Below are positions 14,561 to 60,179 of a DNA stretch of 64,000 nt, piece after piece. The notes beneath the pieces were generated by a model. The model did not search any database. It worked only from the letters and a program-made list of their open reading frames with translations, and was not told where the DNA came from. Each line of letters opens with the position of its first letter. Positions within the stretch are counted from its first letter, which is position 1. The position numbers were made by a program, and so were the translations under genes. The stretch lies in NCBI GenBank assembly GCA_964016885.1, contig OZ024766.1, forward strand, positions 15,066,001-15,130,000. Direction: 5' to 3'. The DNA comes from Eledone cirrhosa. Lineage: Eukaryota.

Positions 14561-14697
14561 AATATTTAATATAGAAATGGCTTCTACAGGACTAGAACTG
14601 TTTCAGTCAGGAGAAATCATCAGGAAGCTTCCTGGTGATTTCTCCCGAATCAAACAAGTCTAGTCCTGTAGAAGCCATGTCTATATTAAATATAAAT
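14561..14697. repeat. Fold-back palindrome centred at 14627/14628
   Basis: Arms ATATAGAAATGGCTTCTACAGGACTAG... and ...CTAGTCCTGTAGAAGCCATGTCTATAT around GGAAGCTTCC. Confidence 0.9.
14580..14628 (-). ncRNA. Type-I hammerhead ribozyme motif (weak stem II)
   Basis: Minus strand: gcttc-CTGATGA-tttctcctgact-GAAA-cag ttctagtc ctg-TA-gaagc. Stems I and III pair; stem II is degenerate. Confidence 0.55.
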
Positions 14698-15231: not shown

Positions 15232-16215
15232 TTCATCTAGCTGTCTGGTGTGGTCATCTAGCTGTCTCCTGTGGTCATCTAGCTGTCTGGTGTGGTCATC
15301 TAGCTGTCTGGTGTGGTCATCTAACTGTCTCATGTGGTTATCTAGTTGTCTCATGTGGTCATCTAGCTGTCTGGTGTGGTCATCTAGCTGTCTGGTGTGG
15401 TCATCTAGCTGTCTGGTGTGGTCATCTAGCTGTCTGGTGTGGTCATCTAGCTGTCTGGTGTGGTCATCTAGCTGTCTGATGTGGTCATCTAGCTGTCTGA
15501 TGTGGTCATCTAGGTGTCTGGTGTGGTCATCTAGCTGTCTGGTGTGGTCATCTAACTGTCTGATGTGGTCATCTAGCTGTCTGGTGTGGTCATCTAGCTG
15601 TCTGGTGTGGTCATCTAGCTGTCTGGTGTGGTCATCTAGCTGTATGATGTGGTCATCTGGCTGTCTGATGTGGTCATCTAGCTGTCTGGTGTGGTCATCT
15701 AACTGTCTGATGTGGTCATCTAGCTGTCTGGTGTGGTCATCTAGCTGTCTGGTGTGGTCATCTAACTGTCTCATGTGGTTATCTAGTTGTCTCATGTGGT
15801 CATCTAGCTGTCTGATGTGGTCATCTAGCTGTCTGGTGTGGTCATCTAGCTGTCTGGTGTGGTCACCTAGCTGTCTGATGTGGTCATCTAGCTGTCTGGT
15901 GTGGTCACCTAGCTGTCTGATGTGCTCACCTAGCCGTCTGATGTGGTCATCTAACTGTCTCATGTGGTCATCTAGCTGTCTGGTGTGGTCATCTAGCTGT
16001 CTGGTGTGGTCATCTAGCTGTCTGGTGTGGTCATCTAGCTGTCTGGTGTGGTCATCTAGCTGTCTGTTGTGGTCATCTGTCTGATGTGGTCATCTAGCTG
16101 TCTGGTGTGGTCATCTAGCTGTCTGATGTCGTCATCTGTCTGATGTGGTCATCTAGCTGTCAGATGTGGTCATCTAGCTGTCAGGTGTGGTCATCTAGCT
16201 GTCAGATGTGGTCAT
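15232..16215. repeat. 21-bp minisatellite (CTAGCTGTCTGGTGTGGTCAT)n, about 46 units
   Basis: Direct tandem units. Reads as (QLDDHTR)n on the minus strand. Confidence 0.97.
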
Positions 16216-16527: not shown

Positions 16528-16655
16528 ATAGGAAAATGTATGACCCCGACGGCAGAGCTGAAGCCGTTTCGACGGTTATTTCTGGACTAAATTTAGTCCA
16601 GAAATAGACGTTGAAACGGCTTGAGCTCTGCCGTCGGGGTCATACATCTTCCTAT
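16528..16655. repeat. Fold-back palindrome centred at 16591/16592; the right arm carries the 3' half of a hammerhead motif
   Basis: CTAAATTTAG axis. GAAA-cggc ttgagctct gccg-TC-gggg at 16613-16639. Related copies at 23118-23227 and 24172-24358. Confidence 0.85.
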
Positions 16656-18616: not shown

Positions 18617-19705
18617 CATGTGTGTATTATCTGATTATGTGTTGTATGTGGTCCTAGATGTATGTATTATCTGATTATGTGTTGTATGTGGTCCTAGATG
18701 TATGTATTATCTGATTATGTGTTGTATGTGGTCCTAGATGTGTGTATTATCTGATTATGTGTTGTATGTGGTCCTAGATGTGTGTATTATCTGATTATGT
18801 GTTGTATGTGGTCCTAGATGTGTGTATTATCTGATTATGTGTTGTATGTGGTCCTAGATGTATGTATTATCTGATTATGTGTTGTATGTGGTCCTAGATG
18901 TATGTATTATCTGATTATGTGTTGTATGTGGTCCTAGATGTGTGTATTATCTGATTATGTGTTGTATGTGGTCCTAGATGTATGTATTATCTGATTATGT
19001 GTTGTATGTGGTCCTAGATGTATGTATTATCTGATTATGTGTTGTATGTGGTCCTAGATGTGTGTATTATCTGATTATGTGTTGTATGTGGTCCTAGATG
19101 TGTGTATTATCTGATTATGTGTTGTATGTGGTCCTAGATGTGTGTATTATCTGATTATATGTTGTATGTGGTCCTAGATGTGTATATTATCTGATTATGT
19201 GTTGTTTGTGGTCCTAGATGTGTGTATTATCTGATTATGTGTTGTATGTGGTCCTAGATGTGTGTATTATCTGATTATGTGTTGCATGTGGTCCTAGATG
19301 TGTGTATTATCTGATTATGTGTTGTATGTGGTCCTACATGTGTGTATTATCTGATTATGTGTTGTATGTGGTCCTAGATGTGTGTATTATCTGATTATGT
19401 GTTGTATGTAGTCCTAGATGTGTGTATTATCTGATTATGTGTTGTATGTGGTCCTAGATGTGTGTATTATCTGATTATGTGTTGTATGTGGTCCTAGATG
19501 TGTGTATTATCTGATTATGTGTTGTATGTGGTCCTAGATGTGTGTATTATCTGATTATGTGTTGTATGTGGTCCTAGATGTGTGTATTATCTGATTATGT
19601 GTTGTATGTGGTCCTAGATGTGTGTATTATCTGATTATGTGTTGTATGTGGTCCTAGATGTGTGTATTATCTGATTATGTGTTGTAAGTGGTCCTAGATG
19701 TGTGT
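18617..19705. repeat. 40-bp minisatellite (ATGTGTGTATTATCTGATTATGTGTTGTATGTGGTCCTAG)n, about 27 units
   Basis: Near-identical contiguous tandem units. Confidence 0.97.
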
Positions 19706-19889
19706 TCTACTCGCTTCTGTTTTTTTCTTTTCTTTTTTTTTATTTGTAATATTATTTATACAATAGGGAATAAAATAGATCTACATAGTGTTAACTCGTT
19801 ACGGTTGAGTCAATAATTTCAGACAAGATTCTAACTGTCTGCGCTCAAAGTGTCTTTGACCCAGTTGACTGTGGGTTTTTCCATTTTTA

Positions 19890-20029
19890 GGATCTCAATT
19901 ACCGGTTAACGTCTCAATTACCGGACATGCCTGCACACCTGCTCACAGCTGCAGACAGCATACCTATAGTCTGACCGCAGGTGTGCAGGCATGTCCGGTA
20001 ATTGAGACGTTAACCGGTAATTGAGATCC
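19890..20029. mobile_element. Hairpin MITE with about 55-bp TIRs, flanked by TA
   Basis: GGATCTCAATTACCGGTTAACGTCTCAATTACCGGACATGCCTGCACACCTGC and its reverse complement. Confidence 0.8.
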
Positions 20030-20182
20030 TAAAATTTGGAAAAAACCAACGCCCCCACCCCCCTCCCACACCTACAAACGCCCCCCCCCCCTCCTAACGC
20101 GACCTTGCTCCAAAACGCCCCCCGGGGGTGCATATGCCCCCCGTTGAGAAGCTTTGGTCTAGAATGTCCTCCACTTCCTCTT

Positions 20183-41519: not shown

Positions 41520-43500
41520 TGGAAGTGCCTCGCCTAATAAACAATGGTGCCATAACTGGACTCAGAAACCAATGGTCACACATACATGGTAAGTTAGCTA
41601 AGAACGTAGGTTTTACATTGGTTCACTGCGCTGGAGAAGTAAGCAGCAATCACGTTTAGGAGACAAGCTCTATCAAATATTTAAAGGGTTCCATAGAAGC
41701 AGTTGACAGTTTCTGTTACCTGGGGTATCAAATAAGCAGTGGAGGTAGGTGTTCTGAAAGTACAGTAACAAGAGTAAGAACAAGATGGCAGAGGTTTAGG
41801 GTGTTACTACTGCTGCTAGCTACAAAAGGTTCATCATCATCATCATCATCACCGTTTTACGTCCGTTCTTCCACGCTAGCATGGGTTAGACGGGTTGTCC
41901 TGTTGTGGGCAGTGTCTGGTCGGCTGACCATGCCTTGCTCATACAGGAACTGATCTGGCTTGATTTCTACAGCTGGATGCCCTTCCTAACACCAACCTCA
42001 TTTACAGTGAGTGCTGGGTGCTTTTTCGTGGCGCCTACACGTCCACTTTACAGTGTGGGCTGGGTGCTTTTTTGCCGTGGCACCTCCACGACCACCTTGC
42101 GGTGGGGGGGGGGGGCATATTGTTTATATGCTTCAGCATGTACCCATGGGAGGTCGGGTACCCTGTATTACTGCGTGACGCCAGAAGTCACGGTCGTGTG
42201 TCATTGACTTTGAGAGGTGTAGTTGGGTAAGGTCGGCTTTTATCACCTCATCCCAAGTCATCTTGGGTCTCCCCACTCCGCGGTTTCCATCAACTTCTAG
42301 TGCTCTGCACCTTTTTATGCAGCTGTCATCCTTCATACGCATCACATGTCCATACCAGCGTAACCGCCTCTCCTGCACGCAGCATTTGATTCCTCTTATG
42401 CTCAGTCTCTCTCTCAATTCATTTATGCTTTGTCGTTCACGTATATTACTGTTACACATCCATCGGAGCATGCAGGCTTCGTTTCTCTCTAATCTACGTA
42501 AGTCTTCCACCTTCAGCGCCCAGGTCTCACTACCATGCAACATCGCTGTTCGGATACACGCATCATACAGTCTGCCTTTCATTCTGAGGGAGAAGCCTTT
42601 TGCAGCTAGCAGTGGTAGTAGTTCCCTAAACTTCTTCCATCCCGTTCTTACCCTAGTTATTGTACTTTCTGAGCACCCACCTCCGTTGCTAATTCGGTCA
42701 CCTAGGTAGCAGAAGCTGTCTACTGTTTCTACAGGGCCCTCCCAGAGATTGGTGGTACTTGTTTCCTGTGGCTGTTTGCTTGCTGTTTCAGCACAGCTGC
42801 TGCATGTGAATCCTACATTCTTAATTAAGCTTCCTGAGATCCCGCTACATCTCTTGTGTACCCATTGTTTGCATTTGGGGCAAAGAATGGAGTTCCTACC
42901 TACACCTTTCCTACATACTGAGCAAGGCCATTTCCCTGAGGGGATCTGGGTTCTGTTTTCTCGTCTACTTATAAGGACCTTAGTCTTTGTCATGTTGACT
43001 TTGAGGCCCTTTCTCTCTAGTCCCTGCTTCCAGGTTTGGAATTTATTCTCTAGTTCTACCATAGATTCAGTTGTTTCGCCAAATTGATGTGTGCATATAA
43101 ACAGCAATGCTGCATTGCAGTGAGGACCCCAGAAGATTGGATAGAAATGAAGCTTGAATTCTCCGATGGATGTGTAATATTAATATACATGAAGGGGAAA
43201 GTGTTAATAACCTGAGAGAGAACCTGGGCATGAGAGGGAAAAGATACAGTATGCAGGAGAGGAGATTGCTGTGGTATGGACATGTGATGTGTATGAAGGT
43301 AGAGATGCTGTATAAAAGGTTGACCACTTGAAATTGATGGAAGAGGAAGACCTAGGAATGCTTGGGATGTGGAGGTAAAAACTGACCTGACACCATTGTA
43401 CCTCTCAAAGGTGATGACACAGGATTGAAATCTCTGGCGTTATACAGTACTGCAGGAGACCTGCATTCCCATGTGCACGGGTTGACACAACATTTAGTGG
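41520..43500 (+). mobile_element. Old plus-strand RTE fragment split by a younger minus-strand RTE (pieces at about 41520-41830 and 43085-43500)
   Basis: VDSFCYLG...LLLLATKG lies before the insertion; TAMLHCSE...WYGHVM follows it. Confidence 0.7.
41831..43085 (-). mobile_element. 5'-truncated RTE (BovB-like) LINE: open RT C-terminus, 3'UTR and (GAT)n tail
   Basis: ORF 42133-43107: GLKVNMTKTKVL, CSVCRKGVG, GWKKFRELLPLL, MLHGSETW, RRLRWYGHVMR. Confidence 0.92.
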
Positions 43501-45035
43501 TTTGAAGTATGCTCCAATTTTCCTCCCCTTCACATCTTAACACTCCACCCCCTTACCAGCTAAGTACACCACCCTGACCTACCTCTCCAATCCCCACTCT
43601 ACATACACACAACCCCACCCCCACTTTCACATCTGATACACCTCTCTTGACCAACCCATGTATACAAGTAAGGAAAGCTTAACATTATCTCCTCCAATGC
43701 TGCTGAAATGGCTAAAAGCCCTCAGGCAACCCTGTAAGGTGGTCATGCAAGTGTCATGACAAAAGAGCACCAAGTCCTCTCTGTTAGGTAACATGACAAA
43801 AGAACACCTAACCCTCCCTGCAAGGTAGTCATGCTGATGACATGACAAATAAGCACCCAGTCCACCCTGTGAGGTAGACATGACAGAAGGCCCCTAGCCC
43901 ACTCTGTAAAGTAGTCATGCTAGTGGCAAGACTGAAGGGACCCGAAGCACCCTTCAAAGTGATCAAATTGGTGACATGACTTGACACCATTTTTTAGTTT
44001 ACTTCTAAAATATCTCATTTTTATTTTACTTCTAAAATATCTCATATATTTAAAAATTACTTATTTTAAAAAATTATTATTTATTTCTTAAAAAAATTAC
44101 TTTTTAAAGATTATTTAAAATTTTTTTATATTTTTTAATATTTTTTAAATATTTTTAAACATTTTAAATAGTTTAAGTACTTTTTAAGTATTTTATTTTG
44201 TTAAAAGGGTTTTTTGAGTATCTTCTGAGATTAAAAAAATTTTTTTTTTTATTTTTCCAGAAATGTTTTCCAGAACTTTTAATATTTTAATATTTTAAAT
44301 ATTTTTTAATTATTTAATATTAGAGTTATAACCAATAACTAATTCTGGCTATATATATCTTTCAACATTTATATCTTCGTCAAAATGGTCTCTTACTAAC
44401 TAATAAATAAACAAAGCTGGGTTTTTCAGTATCTTCCTAATTTAAAACATTAAAAACATATAAATAATCTTATTAACTCAGTTAATTTAATTACTTACAC
44501 TAAATATAAACCAGTATCCCTCATAACTTATTAAAACAATTATCTATAACATGATATAGCCATTTATCCACTCATATATCTATTCTTCTATCTATTGATT
44601 CTCCTATTTTCTACTTTATATCTATTTATTTTCAATTTATTATTCAATGTCTTTATATATATTTATTTTTTCTATATATCTATTTTTCTATATACTTATA
44701 ATAGTAAATATTATATTGTATTATATTAGAATTCTAACAATAATTAGTAAATATACGTAACATTAATATAAACGTAATACTTATTTACGTTACACGAGTT
44801 CATCCTCTATAAATGTCTTTCTTCTCTCTATCTCTCTATCTATCTCATAACAGTAATTTTTTTCTCTCTCTTTCTTCTCTTTCTTCCCTATCTTTCCCCA
44901 GCGTAATTTAAATAAACGGTTGTTTTTTCAATTTTTCATACATTCATTTGCATATTCACACATAACTTTGAATTACCCCTAATAAGTTTCCCCTATCCAG
45001 CGAATTTCCGACCGTTATTTATAAAACAAATTTTG

Positions 45036-45100
45036 TATTTTATCTGATGAAAGAGCACCAAGATTGACTTGGTCGCCCTTGAAATATATATAATAAAATA
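45036..45100 (+). ncRNA. Type-I hammerhead ribozyme, complete core
   Basis: tattttat-CTGATGA-aagagcaccaag attga cttggtcgccctt-GAAA-tatata-TA-ataaaata. Perfect 8-bp stem I, paired stem II, palindromic stem III. Confidence 0.78.
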
Positions 45101-46214
45101 AATATGCAAAAGTTCTATTTAAATTGTTGGGATACAACAAGCAAATATGTTTATAACTGATATAAAGCACTCAACAAGTATTTGGAATAAACATACGATA
45201 TTAACAATCCTTTTGTATTTTATGTACTCAATTATACGATGTACTATATTGATTTATACTTCTCTCTATATGTGAGTATATATGTATATGTGTATATTGA
45301 CATACATGTACATGTGTTCTATGCATTTTTATGAATATATGTCTGTCTGTATGTATGCATGCGTGACGCGAATCTACCAATTTGCCGAGGATGCACACAC
45401 ATGTATATATATGTATATGTAAGAATTGTGTGTGTACATGTACATGTATACCCATACAATTTGATTGCAGATAGACATAACTAACAGCCATAAATGCATA
45501 ACAGCTAATCTTATATATTTATATATATATATTAAAAAAAATTTGTTATAAAAAATATTTTATTTAATAACACAAAGGATGGATAACATTAAATTAAAAA
45601 TTCATTTATGCTTTGTATGTATATATTATATACGTGGTTAGATATGGTGTGTATTTTGTGAGTGTGTGTATATATATATATTTATGTGTATTTTTGCGTG
45701 TGTGTACGTGTTATATGATATGTAGTTCTCTAGCAATATATAGATTTCTTAATGTTTAGATTCCAATTTTTAATATATTGATCTCAATTTTTAAACTAAA
45801 TATCTAATCATAGTTAAACAATGATTAATTTCTCATATTATGTATGTATATTCCATTCATGATTATTAATATTTCTAATTTTATTTATTCATTTCATCTC
45901 AATTGTTAAGTTAACTTAATATGACATGACTTAATGTGTTCATTCTTTCCCCCTCTCTCTATCTCTATATTTTTGTCTCTGTCTGGTGTTTTGATATATC
46001 TCTCTCGTTTTTCTCTCCTTTTTCTTTTTTCTTGTTTTCTTTCTTTCTTTCTCCCTTTTCTCTCTCTCCGTCCTTTTCCTTATCTGTAACACAACGACTT
46101 ATTTTAAAAATACTAATATAAGTAAACAACTCCACTATCCCTGAGTCTTCCAAAAGTAACGGTTGCATTTTGTAAGGGTATGTCAATATTTATTTATAAA
46201 ACTGTTATATATTG

Positions 46215-46279
46215 TATTTTGTCTGATGAAAGCATACCATAATTTAACATGGTATCCTCGAAATATGTATAATAAAATA
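46215..46279 (+). ncRNA. Type-I hammerhead ribozyme, complete core (second, diverged copy)
   Basis: tattttgt-CTGATGA-aagcataccat aatttaac atggtatcctc-GAAA-tatgta-TA-ataaaata. The first pair of stem II is mismatched. Confidence 0.7.
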
Positions 46280-46347
46280 GATATGGTTTTATAAATATAG
46301 TTTCCATTTGTTAATATCGTATAATAAAATAAATATAGTTTTATAAA

Positions 46348-46732
46348 TCATCATCACCGTTTTACGTCCGTTCTTCCATGCTAGCATGGGTTAGACGGGT
46401 TGTCCTGTTGTGGGCAGTGTCTGGTCGGCTGACCATGCCTTGCTCATACAGGAACTGATTTTGGCTTTTCTACAGCCGGATGCCCTTCCTAACACCAACC
46501 TCATTTACAGTGAGTGTTGCGTGCTTTTTTCCGTGGCGCCCACACGTCCACTTTACAGTGTGGGCTGGGTGCTTTTTCTGTGTGGCACCTCCACGACCAC
46601 TTTGCAGTGGGATGGTGTGGGGGCATATTGTCTATATGCTTCATCTTGAACCCATGGAAGGTCGGGTACTCTGTATTACTGCGTGACGCCAGAGGTCACG
46701 GTCGTGTGTCATCATCGCCTTTGAGAGGTGTG
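46348..46732 (-). mobile_element. RTE-LINE 3'UTR fragment
   Basis: Closely similar to 41845-42220. Confidence 0.8.
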
Positions 46733-46770: not shown

Positions 46771-46984
46771 AATAAATTATCGAGAATCGGAATCTCGGCC
46801 CACGAAATAACGAAACACAATCTTCGAAAAGTGTAGCAAAGTGCTCAATAGTTTGGATAAACCAGAGCTATAACTAATATTTAAATACCAACACACTGAG
46901 ATAATGCTTAAAATCATTCGCACAGCCGAAAAAACGACCAAGAAAATTCGGGTCAGACAAATAATAAATATATATATATATATT

Positions 46985-48256
46985 TTTTCTTTTAACATAT
47001 ATGTGTTTATAAAATATATACAGGAACTCCCCAAAAATGTATACACACTTCAACTACAGTCTATGTAAGTGTGTATATATTTTTGGGGGACACTGTAATA
47101 TACATATCATTAAACGTATCTCCTACATGTGTATAAATAAATATACATGTATTTTATTAACAATTTTCTGTAGAATCTGTTAAACATGGAAGAAAATGTG
47201 GAGACTAAATAAAATTAACGTGTTGGTCACATTAACTTAATAATATAACTATATATTAATGAAATATGTCGAAATAAAAGTTGTAATTGTGACAAAAATA
47301 TTGATTCGGTAGTTTATTATGACCAAGATTGAATATTTAATGGAATTAAGTGGAATTTATTAGGAAATAAGACAATAAAACAGTGAAATGTTGAGGTTAA
47401 AAGAGAGAAAAACAAAATGTCCTCTCTTTATAAACTTTAATGTGGTTGAATTAGTAGCGGCTCGGCTTACTAAACTCAGCTCTCTCAAGGGTTCGAATCT
47501 CACGTAGTTTACTATAGTGTCTACAGAGTTATCTCCTACTGCTTTTATATAGTATCACTGTTTATTGTAAAGAGGGCGCTACAATCATTTACTAGTGTGA
47601 CCAATGGTTTGCAGTCTGGCTTACTAACGCCAGGACTAAAGTGTTACATGGTTCCAACCGGGCTGGTTCCTTAATTTTTAAAAAGAGTTATCACCCATAG
47701 TCTTTCAGAGATTCCTCGAAAGGTGGCGTGGCGATCTGCTTTCATGAGGAGTAGTAAGAGACAATAATATATGTAAGGAGGAGGAGTGAGAGAGACAAAA
47801 ACAAAACTGTGTTAATTCTCTCTCCCCCTCGCTTCTTTTACTCTATCTACCTGTTATGTCTTCATTTCACTGTTTTATTGTCTTACTAGCAGTGTATCCC
47901 GGCGTTGCACGGGTAAGAACATTGGTAATAGCACCTCCAATGAGAAACCTTTATTTGTGAGTGCCTGTTAAAAACTCACAAACTGGACATGCTCACCGAC
48001 ATCCAGAGTTGACACTGCACTCAGTGCTCCTGTGGGAGACTCTGCATGGACACACTGGAAGAGGAAGACTGAGGTGAACATATGTTGATGCCCTCAGGAC
48101 AGACACTGGTCTGTTGGAGGTGCAGGACATGGCAGTGATAATGAGGGACAGAGACCCCTGGAGAGACCTCGTCTATGGTTCTTGGGAATTTTACCCGTCC
48201 TAGGTAGATAGATATATTTGTATGTGTATATTTATATATATGTATATGTGTATATT

Positions 48257-48409: not shown

Positions 48410-48882
48410 ATATGTGTTTGTATATGTATGTATATCTATACAAATATATAAAAGTGAAATTGTGTGTGTGTGTGTCCTGATTTTTGCACCGCCAAGGAAG
48501 CACCAGAGATGTCGCAGCCTCAGCATGCCAAGCCCTCCACGCAACGGGTGTTGACAGCAGATGAATAGTCTGACCATGGGAGCATGTCCCTTCCATAGAA
48601 AGCGGAAGAGGAGGTGCTCCATTTTTGTCAGAGTTGGGCCGGGGCAATATTTCCTAATTCCACTTAATTCCATTAAATATTCAATCTTGGTCGAAATAAA
48701 TATTTTCATCTGTGACGATCTGTACAACCAATAATAGTAGGAGTCACGTTACATGATATGTATATATATATACAGGATGTCCCTAAAATATGTATACACA
48801 TTTACATAGACTGTAGTTGAAGTGTGTATACATTTTGGGGAGACCCTGTATATATTTTATTTATATATATATATGTTAAAAG
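46985..48882. mobile_element. Large degenerate fold-back element; each arm carries an approximately 75-bp Tc1/mariner-type mini-MITE (47021-47095, 48772-48848); the right arm is interrupted at 47886-48649
   Basis: GACCAAGATTGAATATTTAATGGAATTAAGTGGAAT (47321) is mirrored at 48657-48692. TA|CAGG...CCCTG|TA mini-elements in opposite orientation. Confidence 0.65.
47886..48649 (-). mobile_element. Helitron-ended composite insertion carrying RTE-X and Tx1/L1 LINE fragments
   Basis: Minus 3' end ACCCGTGCAACGCCGGGATACACTGCTAG|T. Plus-frame peptide [22 protein letters not shown]...DTGL...DRDPWR (RTE-X-like). Minus-frame FRFLWKG...[12 protein letters not shown] (Tx1-like). Confidence 0.6.
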
Positions 48883-48909
48883 ATGATTGATATATATATC
48901 TACACTCAA

Positions 48910-49299
48910 ATAAATTAATAAAATAATGAATAAACAAAGAAACAGTTCTTTATATTAAAAAAATTCATCATTTTACGATCGTTTCTAGGATATATATGTG
49001 TTAGAGTTGGTATGCATATTCTATAGATCTATGTACAATATTTATAAAAACTATCAGAGGGAATATACATACCTACACATATATATGCTGTCTTCAGAAA
49101 TAATATTATTTCTGAAGACATCATATATATGTGTAGGTATGTATATTCCCTCTGATAGTTTGTATAAATATTGTACATAGATCTATAGAATATGCATATC
49201 ACCTCTAACACATATATATCCTAGAAACGATCGTAAAATGATGAATTTTTTTAATATAAGGAACTGTTTCTTTGTTTATTCATTATTTTATTAATTTAT
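48910..49299. repeat. Spacer-less palindrome centred at 49104/49105 with about 195-bp arms
   Basis: CTTCAGAAATAAT|ATTATTTCTGAAG axis. Arms nearly identical. Confidence 0.95.
49104..49243 (+). ncRNA. Type-I hammerhead ribozyme with extended (about 105-nt) stem II; mirror copy on the minus strand at 48966-49105
   Basis: tattattt-CTGAAGA-[catc atatatatgtgt...acacatatatat ccta]-GAAA-cgatcg-TA-aaatgatg. Confidence 0.68.
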
Positions 49300-49501
49300 C
49301 TTGACTCTGTTTTCCGTTTATTTTTCACCGAAAGTAGTTGTTGAATGCATCTTCTCTTTTCATGATATCTGGATTACATTGAGTTCTTCATACGGATTGG
49401 ACACTACCGTAAACTTTTGGTAGATTTATCTACATTCTACACTCAAATGCATATTTATATATTTATATATATATAAATATATATAAATATATTTATATAT
49501 T

Positions 49502-51589: not shown

Positions 51590-52005
51590 TAGTGACTATC
51601 AGACATAGTGTATCTAGGATTACATTATCTAATGTACAGTATAGTAGCTATTAGACATAGTGTACCTAGGACTACATTATCTAATGTACAGTATAGTGGC
51701 TATCAGACATAGTGTACCTAGGACTACATTATATAATGTACAGTATAGTGGCTATCAGACATAGTGTACCTAGGACTACATTGTCTAATGTACAGTATAG
51801 TGGCTATCAGACATAGTGTATCTAGGACTACATTATATAATGTACAGTATAGTGGCTATCAGACATAGTGTACCTAGGACTACATTGTCTAATGTACAGT
51901 ATAGTGGCTATCAGACATAGTGTACCTAGGACTACATTATATAATGTACAGTATAGTGGCTATCAGACATAGTGTACCTAGGACTACATTATCTAATGTA
52001 CTATA
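51590..52005. repeat. 52-bp minisatellite, about 8 units
   Basis: AGTGGCTATCAGACATAGTGTACCTAGGACTACATTATCTAATGTACAGTAT repeated. Confidence 0.93.
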
Positions 52006-52046
52006 TAGCAGTTAGTAATTGTGGCTATCATTATTATAGACTTCAA

Positions 52047-54337: not shown

Positions 54338-57300
54338 CTAGCTGACGTACCTAGCTTCGCCCGGGTAAACAGATGATAAGAGAAGACAGGTAAAAGAGAA
54401 AATGTCTGTATTGGATGTTTGTCTGGTTACAGTGTGAGGCGAGTCCGTGTTGTCTGTGTGATACAAAAAAACAGTAAAAATAATCTTCCAGATATACCAG
54501 ATTCTTCGTCGTGCGGTTTGTGCATAGTATATGAACAATTCTAGGTGCTCCCACCTAGAATAGTGACCTCTAGGAGATGGTTCCTCTTCTGCCTGACTGG
54601 AAAACGTGTATCATTGCATAGACGTGGTTGTTCCACGTTTCTCAAAAGGATGATGGAAGTTCCAATCTTTTATATTATATGTAGATATAGATATAGATAA
54701 TTAATAAAAAAGATGTCCGTCAATGTAAAGAAGGTCCCTATTTACTTGAAATGGTTTATACAAATGCCAAATTAATATGGATATGGATAACATGCTTATC
54801 TATAAGTGGTCAGCTATAATAATAAAACAACAAATTATATGACACAAAAATTTATTCAGTAATTTCCAGGCTCTTAGCCACTGAGTAATAGACAGTCAAT
54901 ATTGCCCAGAGTTCAACTCGGGGAGGTGGCCTGGTTTGAACTCAAAATGGCGGATCCTTCTACTTCGAAAATAGAATCGTTTTTCAATATTACTCTAGCC
55001 CTGGCCGGCCATAGACACCAAACTTTTTGCCAGACTCAGCATATGATGAGGTTTTATTACCACTGCAATCAGAAGCGATAAATTTGAAGGCAATTTCTAC
55101 CAATACTTGTTGGTTTTTATTGCTCATTATCGACAATAAATGACATTGGACATAAATGATAACTCTGCCAAAGCTCACAATACAGATGAAAGGAAACCAA
55201 TGTCCGAATCATATACGTCGCTTATTGATAGCTTTAAAGATATGCATACATCAGCTCAAAGCTTCATTATAGACAATATTTAGGTTTGTTACTCTGTTAG
55301 TGGTATCAATTGCAAATTTTATACCATCAGGATCGCACACTCGAGATGCAGCAACATAGAGTTGCCCATGGCTGAATGCTGGATCATTCAAGTAGACACC
55401 GACTCGCTTGAAAGTCTGTCCCTGTGCCTTGTTGACAGTCATGGAGAAGGCCAAATTGACGGGAAACTGTCTCCTTTGCCAAATAAATGGCAGCAGATCT
55501 TCACTTGGTCTCAGCATGATCCTCGGAATGAGAACCGATTCCTCTCTGCCTGGGAGTTTAGCTTCTAAAACTCTTCCGTTAATCAATCTCTCAACAATCA
55601 ATCTGGTACCATTGCAAAGACCCATTTTATGATTGATATTTCTAAGCAATATAATCGGCAAACCCTTTTTCAACCTCAAAATATGTGGGGGAAATCCGGG
55701 TATTTGAAGTGAATTCAGATACTCAGTCGGAACATCCATACTGTTCTGCTGATTAGGCTCCATTGCATACGCACTGACGGTCAACCATTCCTCTCCAGGA
55801 AACATTCCGGCTACTTGTGAATTTATTTCATCGACCGTTGTATTCGTATGAGTTAGAATAACACGTTCCGATATCCAGGAGATATTCTGCCAAAAAGCAT
55901 TCAAATTAGGGAACACCCAGTCAATCAAGCCTTGGCGGTCCAGTGGCATGACCAAATGGTCTGGGATTCATACAGTCTGATTATCACCAACGTGTGGCAA
56001 TTCATCGTTTCCCAACTGCATCAACCATCGGCCGTATGTCTCAGCCTCTTCGTTTTGCCCGAACATAGGAAGTCGCATATTATCGTGTAATCGCAAAACT
56101 CTGAAATGGCCCCACAACGGGGACTTTTTCAGACATGCATCGACAATTTGCGCTCTTTGAGCATTCCTAACAATTGGTAGCACCTGTCTGAAATCGCCAC
56201 CAACAACGATAGTCTTACCACTGAATGGCAGGTCACTACCGCAGATATCTCTCAATGTTCTGTCCAATGCCTCCAGCAAATATCTGTGTGCCATTGGAGC
56301 CTCGTCGCAAATAATCAGAGACGTATTGCGTATAAGGCCCGCGAGTTCACTTTGTCCTGTAATATTACAGACACTCAACTCATCTGGAGCCAATGGAGCC
56401 TTGAAGCATGAGTGGAAGGTCCTTCCACCACTCAGCAAAGTGGCAGCGATGCCCCTGGTGGGCACAGGGAGAGCAATCTTCCTCTGAGCTCTGACTGCCG
56501 ATAACATAGTGTTGAAACAGAATGTCTTTCCGGTGCCTCCTGGAACATCTATGAAAGCACAAAGTTGCTCATTAGTGGAAATCGAGTGGAGAGCGCCATC
56601 GACCAATTCTCTGTGAGATTGGGTCAACATTGGCATACGTTCATCCACAATACGTTGCTGTTCCAGTGGATCAAACTGGAATAGTTCCCTCCGATCGAGT
56701 GGCAACCGTCTAAGCTGCAATCTCATGTTCAATGCTAAGACACGTTGCCACATTTCTTCATCAGGAATTGGCAAATTGAAATCTGTTAAACATTTCAAAT
56801 GAACTTCGAGCAGTTGCTCAATATTGAGCAAAACAATAGCCTTCATCAAATGTTCATCATAGACCTGAAGATGGTGCCTAAAATCATCAGCCATAATTCC
56901 CCAATGGCGTTCAAATAACTCTCTTGGATCGGCAGAATTGCAGAATCCTAGAATCGTGACAAACAACTGCCATATTCGAGCTGGCATCTGTGTTGTTCCT
57001 GCAGCTTCCATGGCGTTATTCCATTCAGCGTCATCCTGAAGGAGTCCCAGATGCTGACACACAGCCTGGTATCTTTTATATTCCACGCCATTGATTGTTT
57101 TCAAATCAGCGAAGCTCTGTTTACCTCTCGAAAAATCACTATGCAACAGAATTCGGAGATAAAACACATCACCAGATGCTGGATGGACATTACAAACCCG
57201 TCCAATAGTCATGAATCTCAACTTTTGTTTTCTATCATTCCATTTCTTTCCCTTCTTATCCCACGTATAGTGCGAAGGGAAATCGCAGTAGAGTTGCTTT

Positions 57301-60179
57301 TGATCCGGGTTCAAAGCATGTTCCCTATTATGCTTGAACCACTCAGTCAATTCCGTCTTAGGAGGTGGTGCGTTAGCAATTCTTTCGATACCTCTTCTAC
57401 TGTCCTTAAAACAGACCATTTGCCTATTCTCTAAGTGAACCGTCAGTTTCTGAACGCTGTGTTTGCGTTCATTGAGATCAAAATCGAACAATCTCCAGCA
57501 AGCTTCGCTAGATCCAATCGAGCGAACATCCTGGAACCTGCCAACTTCATCTCCTTGGTTCGCTTCCTCATTCCTGACATTCATCATTGCCCCATCATGA
57601 CCTTTGTAAACATACTTGAATAGATATTTGCAAGCTTTCACTGAGCTACAAATTTCCACATTAATATGACAACGATATTTCATAATCAAATATGGATTGT
57701 ATGGCACAACCCATTGATTTGTAACCTGTCGACCGTTTACATTTTCGACCAAACCGCCATCGGCAGGCGACCGTCTTCTGTATGAGGGATGAGCATCCCC
57801 ATCATTCCAGGAAGTGTTCCTGACAAAAGATTTCGGAAAGTGCTTACTGCATTGGCCATTTTTCATGCAAGGCGCTTTCCGATTTGCCACTCCGCATTGG
57901 TTGTGCACCATTGACTTTGCCACCAAGTTGCATAGTGCCTCATTCTCCGGCAGTTCAGCACACACAATGCTGTCGACATCCTCAGCACATCACAATTTGC
58001 AATCTCTATGTAAAATGATCAGCAAATGTGCATGTGGCAATCCTCTTTTTTGGAATTCAATTACGTATGTAAAAGCAACTATACCTCCAAAGATTCCCTC
58101 TTTTTCCACATCATCCATTATCTTTTTCAGATATCCTTTGAATACTCTTGCCACAATATCAGGACGGTCCTTTGGCTGTTGTCCTGGCAAAAGTGCATCC
58201 TTAATATCAGTCCATTCAGGATTGCATGTAACCGTTATAAACAAATCTGGCTTTCCAAACTTTCTGACAATAGCCATTGCATCCTGATAGCGAATGTTCA
58301 TATATCTCGGGCCGCCGATGAACGACGATGGCAAAATGATGCGTCGACCAATTTGCTTGTAATTGGCATCATTGGCTGTTATCGCATCCTGTATATTATT
58401 ATACAATTCAGCTCTGATATGTTGCTGATGTGTAGCTATATAATTTAGCCTTTGATTTTCGATCTTTGCGTATGCCATACAACAGTATTCCTGGAACAAT
58501 CTGCTGGCTTGAAATAGCGCATTTCTCTGTTGATTCCTCTCGTTCAAATGGAACGCGTAAAAGTCGCGAATTGAATTATTGTGTCTATTGCCACCTCCCT
58601 GTTGATGCTGATTCTCATGATCATCTAAATGAACAGACATGTTCCATCCATTTTCACCTTTTGGGAATAAAAGAACATAATGCAATGGATGGTATGTCCT
58701 ATTTGACTCATTGATAGTGTTGAGACCACCATCTCTGCGATTGAGGGCTATATCTCTCGATCCAGGCTTATCGTCCATCAACACAGCAACTTCACGAAAT
58801 CCTTCGGGGGCATTATATCGCCGTTCGTGTTGATTCCTTGGCACTGCGTCAGCCTTAATCACCAATGTTTGTTGCTGAACATTCTGCAGTTCAGCCACCA
58901 ACATGAAATCCATAACATAAGGATTACACTGTCTAAGCCATGATTGCAAATCATGGATCAAATCACTTAACCTTTGCCGTTCAAGTTCAGTTATATTTCC
59001 CGGCAACTTCATCCAACCGATCCTGATATCCTCCTCCGATTCACTATAATCTGGATTGTTAACGTAAATTTGAGCGAATCAAGGCCTCTCTCCTGGGGTA
59101 ACTTCTAAATTATCGATACAATGATACAAACGGCATTGAATGACGACATTCGGTTGCCATGCTCCACTCTCAAACATCTCACTAACTCTCTGCGATGCTA
59201 AAGCTAATAAATTGTTAATTTGCCGCGAATATTTGCGCAGTAATCTACCTCGGTCTCATTGATCACCCCACATACTTAGTATTTTAAACTCCGGTGACTC
59301 CCCATCATCCGGCATTCGCAAAGGTTCTAGTTGAACTGCTCCTTTGTGACAGCACATTGTGGTCCACGTCTTTTCGTGCCACCAAAGCAATGCTCCACAA
59401 TGTGGAGACCCTGGTCGTCCACCAATCTGACAGTGACACGGTTGCCATGATCCATTTTTAATATCATTCGTTCGCCTCTTTACTGGAATGAGGAGCACTT
59501 TGCGACACATTCCCTGAACTTCTGTATTGCGGTGGCGCTGTTCAGCCAGCTCCTCTTCATCCACCGGAGCACGCCATTGCTGCTGAATTCTGGCCACCTG
59601 CTGATGATGCTCAGCCAGTTCGTTTTTCAACCATCGCAGCACTCCGTCGCCGCTGTAGTTCACTGTTTGATAAAGTCGAATTGCTTTTCTTATCAGTATT
59701 CATTTGGAGCAATTGTAAAAAAAAATGACACAATAATAAATATAAAAGATGTCCGTCAATGTAAAGAAAGGTCCCTATTTACTCCCTTCACAACTCTGTG
59801 TATGACAGACAGGCACACAGACAGATAAACTGCGCGGCGATTGTGGAACGTCACACAAATACACGCATGGAAACGCGCACACGCACACAAACTTACACAC
59901 GCACACACTCACACATGTTGATAGTTTTTACTTTCTGTGGAACACTGCACGCACGCACACACACATAAACATACGCGCACATACATACACACGCATACAT
60001 GTTAATAGTTATTGAACACAGCGTTCACACTCTCCCCTCTCACTCCCTCATTGGCATTATGCATATTAATTTCAGTTTGGCGTCGTTGGGGTGGGCGGAG
60101 TCGTTTGAAACCTATGAACCAATGATAATCGAGAATTGTGACACACGGAATACTGACGTTCTTCAAATTAATATATAGA
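54338..60179 (-). mobile_element. Near full-length Helitron (about 5.8 kb)
   Basis: 5' A|TCTATATATTAATTTG at 60179. 3' TACCCGGGCGAAGCTAGGTACGTCAGCTAG at 54338. RepHel coding region in between. Confidence 0.93.
55251..59663 (-). pseudogene. Helitron RepHel (HUH Rep plus PIF1-family helicase) broken into four ORFs by frameshifts/stops
   Basis: KPDLFITVTCNPEW, EFQKRGLPHAHLLI (HUH), KYLFKYVYKG, PGGTGKT (Walker A), ICDEAPM, GGDFRQVLP, GLCNGTRL, RRQFPVNLAFSMTVNKAQGQT, FSHGQLYVAASRV. Confidence 0.95.

Follow-up and report, generated by a model that had tools for sequence, protein, structure and literature searches.

Background

Penelope-like elements (PLEs) carry hammerhead ribozymes of type I with a long helix II and a tiny palindromic helix III, which occur in thousands of copies per genome and show high within-genome diversity accompanied by covariation (PMC4209133). 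These hammerheads are mostly single motifs, probably belonging to truncated PLEs, have low activity even as dimers, and are flanked by U-rich sequence on the 5' side and by AU-rich sequence on the 3' side, with AAUAAA being common in the tails (PMC4209133). Within the elements the hammerhead lies near the 3' end, the copies are usually 5'-truncated and (TA)n targets are favoured (PMC8557442); partial tandems are the typical PLE layout and are accompanied by a 30-40-bp tail extension (PMC8557442, section 6), and PLEs tend to insert beside earlier copies (PMC6765202). In the tabulated hammerheads of the Hydra clade of PLEs, stem III has 3-4 bp and a 1-3-nt loop in all 26 rows, the base of stem II is mismatched in 15 of the 26 and the cut follows an A in 13 of the 26, all of these being counts by eye, and in one Hydra consensus the hammerhead is closely preceded by a long T/C-rich tract (PMC8557442). 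Hammerheads are already recorded in cephalopods, both in the giant squid, with 235 Hammerhead_1 loci (PMC6962438), and in Hydra-1_Obim, a Hydra family from Octopus bimaculoides (PMC8557442, file S2).

A second group of described systems comprises the retrozymes. Those of animals are tandem whole-unit repeats of 150-450 bp giving rise to highly self-paired circles (PMC7229834), and a unit range of 51-972 bp has been reported, together with in vitro tests of predicted Xenopus dimers in which one of nine cleaved and the remaining eight did not (bioRxiv 10.64898/2026.07.22.740005). We compare here with both groups a locus in a 64-kb stretch of Eledone cirrhosa DNA, which is referred to throughout as the window.

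Two type-I hammerhead motifs in the window

The window contains two real hammerhead motifs, HH1 and HH2 (Table 1), each of which possesses the CUGANGA and GAAA cores, an NUH triplet and the type-I order of parts. Both the sequence itself and a both-strand descriptor scan place the CTGATGA and GAAA words exactly where an earlier sequence-only reading had put them. Stem I is paired at 8 of 8 positions in both motifs, as claimed in that reading, whereas stem II is paired at 11 of 12 positions in HH1 and at 9 of 12 in HH2; the two different stem II helices that had been proposed, accaag/cttggt and ataccat/atggtat, are indeed present and have a pair probability of about 0.99 in each 77-nt motif. 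Where a G10.1-C11.1 pair is usual at the base of stem II, HH1 has an A-U pair and HH2 a mismatch (A.C), departures of a sort often seen among PLE hammerheads (PMC4209133, PMC8557442); in each copy a second stem II mismatch lies three pairs further inward. The stem III insert had been described as a palindrome of 6 nt; the palindrome stands, but the length has to be corrected because the last base of the insert is the A of the AUA triplet, so that stem III of a monomer consists of two A-U pairs closing a 4-nt loop, as against 8 pairs in a dimer. The cut positions given earlier were confirmed, and cleavage at both would yield 1179 nt. AATAAA overlaps both cut sites, with two hexamers at HH1, which overlap the cut site and stem I, and one at HH2. 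The 36-nt second copy of the HH2 3' part comprises stem III, the cut site, the stem I strand and the tail, and is possibly a 30-40-bp tail extension of the PLE kind or a local duplication. CT-rich tracts do precede both motifs, as had been noted, but they are not immediately adjacent and end about 140 nt before the cores; tracts of such pyrimidine richness lie 100-300 nt upstream of 1.4% of sampled window positions, by a threshold that was set post hoc.

Table 1. Coordinates of the two motifs and of the features around them, given as positions in the window
Feature	Position	Strand	Details
CT-rich tract	44818..44899	+	ends ~145 nt before HH1 core; limits by eye
Block around HH1	45015..45110	+	HH1 preceded by ~20 nt of A/T-rich sequence and followed by a short tail (two AATAAA); homologous to 46190-46290
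HH1, type-I hammerhead motif	45036..45100	+	stem I TATTTTAT 45036-45043, CTGATGA core 45044-45050, stem II region of 30 nt, GAAA 45081-45084, TATATA, TA, stem I ATAAAATA 45093-45100; predicted cut after 45092
Stretch between predicted cuts	45093..46271	+	1179 nt, 26% GC, no ORF over 63 codons on +
CT-rich tract	45942..46084	+	ends ~140 nt before HH2 core; limits by eye
Block around HH2	46190..46296	+	counterpart of HH1 block, one AATAAA at cut site
HH2, type-I hammerhead motif	46215..46279	+	stem I TATTTTGT 46215-46222, CTGATGA core 46223-46229, stem II region of 30 nt, GAAA 46260-46263, TATGTA, TA, stem I ATAAAATA 46272-46279; predicted cut after 46271
Second copy of HH2 3' part	46313..46348	+	36 nt, period ~52 nt
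Unrelated 5'-truncated LINE 3' end	46347..46731	-	91% identity to 41842-42220

A descriptor requiring the core words, at least 8 pairs in stem I, a stem II helix of at least 5 and a palindromic stem III was run on both strands and had exactly two strict matches in the 64 kb, namely HH1 and HH2. The comparison with shuffled sequence that the sequence-only reading had proposed upholds these two matches, for dinucleotide shuffles in 1-kb blocks gave none in each of 200 replicates, even at a looser cut-off. The Rfam search proposed alongside it detected neither motif: no hammerhead model matched HH1 or HH2 at E values up to 10 with 100-nt queries. Across the window Rfam yielded nothing at gathering scores, and relaxing E to 10 brought up only a background of hairpin and snoRNA models.

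Divergence of the two copies

HH1 and HH2 share a common block of 78% identity over 97 nt, whose alignment score of 104 (null 24.5 +/- 4.1) was reached in none of 300 shuffles. Identity within this block is uneven: outside stem II it amounts to 46 of 50 positions (22/24 and 24/26), which take in the flanks, both core words and the other two stems, as against 15 of the 24 paired positions of stem II. Six of the nine differing stem II positions make up three pairing-preserving double changes (G-C to A-U, C-G to U-A and A-U to U-A), which bears out the earlier observation that structure is kept despite sequence change. When nine changes were placed at random, at least three such doubles arose in 1.1% of 200,000 trials and at least nine pairs were kept in 4.6%, percentages that are indicative since the stem II register was picked by eye. 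This pattern in the sequences suggests that HH1 and HH2 diverged under selection.

Beyond the block, the spacers between CT tract and core, the CT tracts themselves, the regions upstream of the tracts and the immediate downstream flanks align at shuffle level, with respectively 56, 124, 243 and 270 of 300 shuffles scoring as well in these four of the six flank comparisons. The other two are broader: when the roughly 700 nt preceding HH1 were compared with the spacer between the motifs, only 5 of 300 shuffles scored as high, and when the flank downstream of HH1 was compared with that beyond the LINE piece, only 3 of 300 did. Both of these contain clustered microsatellite or CT tracts, which shuffling breaks up, and because masked BLAST found no match in either we read their scores as clustered low-complexity sequence, behind which there may be very old homology. 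With divergence uneven and clear homology confined to the block, the copies resemble two subfamilies for which the fold mattered while they diverged; HH1 and HH2 thus look like members of two subfamilies rather than one repeated unit.

Based on these observations we lean, by a modest degree, towards the proposal that the locus preserves the 3' ends of two 5'-truncated PLE copies, which belong to related but distinct subfamilies and lie in the same orientation 1.18 kb apart. An improbable account, though one with a real chance of being right, is that of a single old PLE insertion of partial-tandem form, with a short pseudo-LTR copy and a longer 5'-truncated one, or of a local duplication, the halves of which have since decayed. 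Such a layout is typical of PLEs (PMC8557442, section 6), and the same orientation, shared family, close spacing, equal distance of the CT tract from both motifs and weak excess alignment in the two broad comparisons (5 and 3 of 300) all speak for it. However, decay of one duplicated copy is expected to be even, whereas the flanks here are 92% and stem II 62% identical; matching flanks beside a stem II altered by compensatory swaps argue against one copy duplicated and decayed, as the three swaps have a chance of about 1% under random change, and the 115-nt spacers upstream of the block do not align (56 of 300). Nor was a near-identical repeated 3' end of the sort seen in partial tandems found at the locus, the repeat being confined to about 97 nt at 78% identity with a diverged stem II.

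Affinities with Penelope-like elements

In HH1 and HH2 stem III is palindromic, the base of stem II is imperfect, the triplet is AUA, a pyrimidine tract lies upstream and the tail contains AATAAA. These traits match the anatomy of PLE hammerheads, by which the two motifs are likely members of a PLE family. This supports the earlier identification of type-I hammerheads of the Penelope-associated kind with a short palindromic stem III. They resemble the motifs described in PMC4209133 in topology, cores, long helix II, a small palindromic helix III that is predicted to depend on a partner, flanks, the presence of diverged covarying copies and occurrence without an ORF nearby, and the combination of an A-U pair at the stem II base with a cut after A is found in the shrimp and Drosophila willistoni rows of that paper. 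They differ in having a stem I of 8 bp rather than the usual 2-6 and a helix III insert of 6 nt rather than 0-2, in the absence from both motifs of the G10.1-C11.1 pair of the published consensus, and in that no PLE ORF was found here (PMC4209133).

Among described groups the anatomy best fits that of the Hydra-clade hammerheads, with which it shares a stem III whose loop is too small to close, the frequent mismatch in the basal pair of stem II, the frequent cut after A and, in one consensus, an upstream T/C tract, whereas stem III of the present motifs is a perfect 8-nt A/U palindrome (PMC8557442). Position near the 3' end and (TA)n targets are further Hydra-clade traits (PMC8557442). At the present locus a (TA)15 follows the LINE piece that adjoins HH2, and a decayed microsatellite lies behind HH1, in a window that has microsatellites throughout. 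No sequence match was obtained to the motifs listed in the searched supplement parts of PMC8557442 and PMC4209133, the octopus Hydra hammerhead included, although line breaks in these files may hide matches. With a frameshift-tolerant motif for the Hydra C-terminus the ranks obtained were 394 and 730 of about 800 peaks, the scores not exceeding those of 65% and 93% of random windows. Given neither a sequence match nor a trace of the Hydra protein C-terminus, the Hydra clade is to be taken as a resemblance. Terminons likewise have 3'-terminal hammerheads, but the reverse-complement telomeric repeats of Terminons and Athena were not seen directly behind the hammerheads here (PMC6431247).

Searches for the coding part of a PLE gave no Pfam reverse transcriptase (RT) or GIY-YIG domain of the PLE type in 12 stop-read frames or in the 30 ORFs of the window, and no real match in a PLE motif scan of all six frames of the window. 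A 73-residue frame that by eye resembles an endonuclease tail had no phmmer match in 1.84 billion proteins. As no PLE reading frame was found nearby, the PLE assignment rests on anatomy; the missing frame is what is expected of short 5'-truncated copies.

Further copies of the motif were also sought. No other full copy was found in the window, and a motif pattern scan had no match in viral contigs or prokaryote genomes and a single one in metagenomes. The latter (L001, 351-415 on the + strand) is a decayed look-alike in a 1.1-kb A/T-rich contig with no ORF over 67 codons, and retains both cores and a stem I, but its stem II pairs poorly and its stem III is not a palindrome. Its E value of 1e-4 against a two-sequence model is not independent, because this locus was chosen by pattern. 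A search of viral contigs for a PLE locus gave no match, one phage stretch (L002) being unrelated.

The stretch between the predicted cuts

The sequence-only reading had proposed that the pair delimits a retrozyme-like unit of 1179 nt, and in some respects the spacer between the cuts agrees with this. No ORF lies between the motifs, as that reading had stated, the longest stop-free frames being 63 codons (+) and 96 codons (-); with no ORF over 96 codons and a GC content below 50% the spacer is in this respect like an animal retrozyme. Its circular fold has a z of -2.1, below all 40 shuffles. However, 60% of it is paired as against 61% in shuffles, and a rough test with 6 shuffles each gave 5 of 8 control segments from the window a z stronger than that of the spacer. 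The spacer is made largely of decayed (TA)/(GT) microsatellite, and within the window it was found repeated neither in tandem nor elsewhere. As for a target duplication, a shared word of at least 9 nt occurs in 2 of 5 flank comparisons, both low-complexity, and there is no clean one. The claim of a retrozyme-like unit is not upheld by a spacer that is unrepeated, over-long and unremarkable in fold and that lacks a clean target duplication.

The locus resembles animal non-LTR retrozymes in having type-I hammerheads in direct orientation, no coding capacity, low GC and a weak helix III favouring dimers, and differs from them in that the clear repeat is limited to about 97 nt, the spacer spans 1179 nt and nothing stands out in its fold. 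Two hammerheads around a 1-kb non-coding stretch are likewise found in plant LTR retrozymes, but there they are of type III and lie in LTRs of 300-400 bp, as opposed to type I and a repeat of about 97 nt here (PMC5680766).

Folding and a possible mode of action

Folded alone, each motif is predicted to favour a rod with GAAAUA paired to the 5' strand of stem I; compared with this rod, the active monomer is less stable by 4.2 kcal/mol in HH1 and 5.4 kcal/mol in HH2, with stem III essentially unpaired. A mixed stem III duplex of HH1 and HH2 has 8 pairs and -3.2 kcal/mol, and both stems I are likewise able to pair across the copies. A two-strand double hammerhead, at -26.0 kcal/mol, falls between two active monomers (-13.4) and the best co-fold (-30.3). 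For the native 1311-nt RNA the energies are -253.2 kcal/mol for the double hammerhead, -246.1 for two monomers and -257.3 without constraints, and the cross-pair probabilities are about 1% or less. All these values come from folding models that omit tertiary contacts and co-transcriptional folding.

For the parent element the following scheme is inferred. Transcription through tandem copies would bring a pair of hammerheads together. Since a lone motif cannot hold a stem III of two A-U pairs, the palindromic strands AUAUAUAU and AUAUGUAU would swap and form an 8-bp helix, generating a double hammerhead, which would cut at AUA and thereby set the RNA ends used for retrotransposition. The folding models make such a dimer mechanism the likely mode of this hammerhead family, and it is also a published view for PLE hammerheads (PMC6765202). 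As stems I and III are nearly identical and the pair is cross-compatible, weak cutting, at one of the sites or at both, is predicted for a + strand read-through RNA of the present locus; mixed-pair cleavage is in this sense possible, and the 1179 nt released by it would be an accidental passenger that is not under selection.

An alternative that we consider unlikely assigns a function to that RNA: the locus would be a non-autonomous, retrozyme-like element bounded by the two hammerheads, of which the mixed pair frees the 1179-nt RNA to be circularised and copied by a PLE reverse transcriptase. The near identity of stems I and III, where the partners must match, alongside the divergence of stem II, which pairs within a copy, speaks for this, as do the 8 pairs of the mixed stem III duplex, the cis double hammerhead standing just 4.1 kcal/mol above the best 1311-nt fold and 7 below two monomers, and an ORF-less spacer of 26% GC whose z was undercut in 0 of 40 shuffles. 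Against it stand the want of any repetition of the spacer in the window, a length above the published unit sizes, a paired fraction equal to that of shuffles with stronger z in the majority of controls, the largely microsatellite make-up of the spacer without clean target duplication, cross-pairing at the 1% level or below, and the uncleaved eight of nine Xenopus dimers (bioRxiv 10.64898/2026.07.22.740005). A particular form of interdependence, that of an obligate mixed pair whose stems II have drifted while stems I and III stayed cross-compatible, so that a hetero-double-hammerhead across 1.1 kb excises the 1179-nt RNA, appears distinctly unlikely. If true, it would represent an animal retrozyme of unusual length and non-tandem arrangement that carries two different ribozymes, or else a co-opted cutter that removes a defined segment from a host transcript.

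Read as the ends of two truncated PLE copies, the locus is ordinary, as thousands of PLE-type hammerheads are known in animal genomes (PMC4209133) and four candidates lie in the window itself. The contribution of the locus is a sequence family which Rfam misses and which was not found in the searched supplement parts of PMC4209133 and PMC8557442; a literature search, which covered few subscription papers, returned nothing on this motif family or on hammerhead pairs of mixed subfamilies. A natural pair in which the stems II differ while stems I and III match further offers a test of cross-activation between PLE subfamilies, and this bears on the role of PLE ribozymes, which is not yet clear (PMC8557442).

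The surrounding DNA and the possibility of domestication

The window is repeat-rich animal DNA of cephalopod-like appearance with 110 rows of microsatellites and minisatellites, and Pfam searches of its 30 ORFs recovered LINE RT, Helitron, ankyrin and C2H2 zinc-finger frames. At least half of 196 words sampled from a 2-kb stretch with both motifs recur in 5 of the 12 sequencing runs listed; these five belong to 2 studies and 2 organism labels, the second label having a share of 0.53. One run of 88 million letters has a share of 0.63, other runs have 0.14, 0.13 and 0.05, and no RNA run is among the sequencing-run matches listed. As one of the matching studies may be the source, the matches establish no more than the reality of the locus and its probable presence in a close relative.

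The LINE piece was inserted directly behind the HH2 tail and is followed by (TA)n. We take this 3' end to be RTE-like. Together with its left counterpart (41842-42220), which runs on into an RT-type frame, it forms a 388-nt direct repeat that was considered as an LTR pair and rejected, being a LINE 3' end with more copies in the window. Nested and inverted LINE pieces occupy 41694-43473, with an RT C-terminal frame bearing a PHD-like cysteine motif at 42133-43179 (-), and the 61-bp unit of one minisatellite (36506-38096) derives from the same LINE 3' region. About 4 kb upstream of the motifs there is a C2H2 zinc-finger array (40172-41030, +) with a repeat insertion at ~40510-40555 and frameshifts, which is probably a pseudogene.

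It is very unlikely, in our estimate, that the pair has been domesticated to trim or destabilise a + strand host transcript (a long 3' UTR, an intron or an lncRNA) with AATAAA at the cut sites. Each motif retains an intact catalytic core and intact stems I and III, AATAAA overlaps both cut sites, the zinc-finger array is on the + strand, and the 2-kb stretch recurs under the second organism label. Yet that array is broken and separated from the motifs by LINE pieces, ordinary PLE hammerheads commonly have an AU-rich tail that contains AAUAAA (PMC4209133), and the second organism is evidently very close, so that sharing speaks of age and not of selection. Finally, that the motifs are chance look-alikes in A/T-rich DNA, or C/D-box snoRNAs, of which UGAUGA is also the C box, is scarcely credible: stems I and III contain nothing but A/T and G-T pairs, the GC content of the DNA is about 25%, and the motifs match no Rfam hammerhead and snoRNA models weakly (E above 1), but these snoRNA scores fall far under the cut-offs, no CUGA D box precedes the 3' stem strand, stem II is compensatory and 200 composition-matched shuffles gave no match.

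Other repeats in the window include Helitron Rep/Pif1 helicase frames at 55251-59078 (-), near-complete but broken by stops, and at 7291-9048 (+), and a MITE-like short element with terminal inverted repeats, present as inverted copies of 82% identity at 46969-47126 and 48737-48902. Young minisatellites with 91-98% matches lie at 15233-16215 (21-bp unit), 18618-19705 (40), 34634-35375 (33), 36506-38096 (61) and 51590-52008 (52).

Other hammerhead-like and palindromic features

A short type-I motif at 28590-28627 (-), with its core at 28621, combines CTGAAGA, a 3-bp stem II plus a C.U mismatch, a palindromic AGTACT stem III and a 6-bp stem I, and lies about 100 nt from a 326-nt palindrome; its build is close to that of Hydra-clade PLE motifs (PMC8557442). 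The window has seven zero-spacer palindromes and a high density of hairpins. One of 132 nt (14562-14693, 89%) has a decayed type-I motif (-), core 14623, near its centre and looks like an inverted PLE end. Another of 400 nt (48906-49304, 97% perfect) bears CTGAAGA half-cores at 49097 (-) and 49112 (+), which face outward, have no GAAA partner within 70 nt and recall the 'HHR half core' of cephalopod Naiad PLEs (PMC8557442). In the five further near-perfect examples (16528-16655, 19872-20048, 28173-28498, 32330-33460 and 33722-34376), of which the last two are embedded in (TA)n, there is no full hammerhead and no recognisable frame. The two - strand motifs and the seven palindromes, which would resemble inverted PLE insertions, are consistent with a PLE-littered genome.
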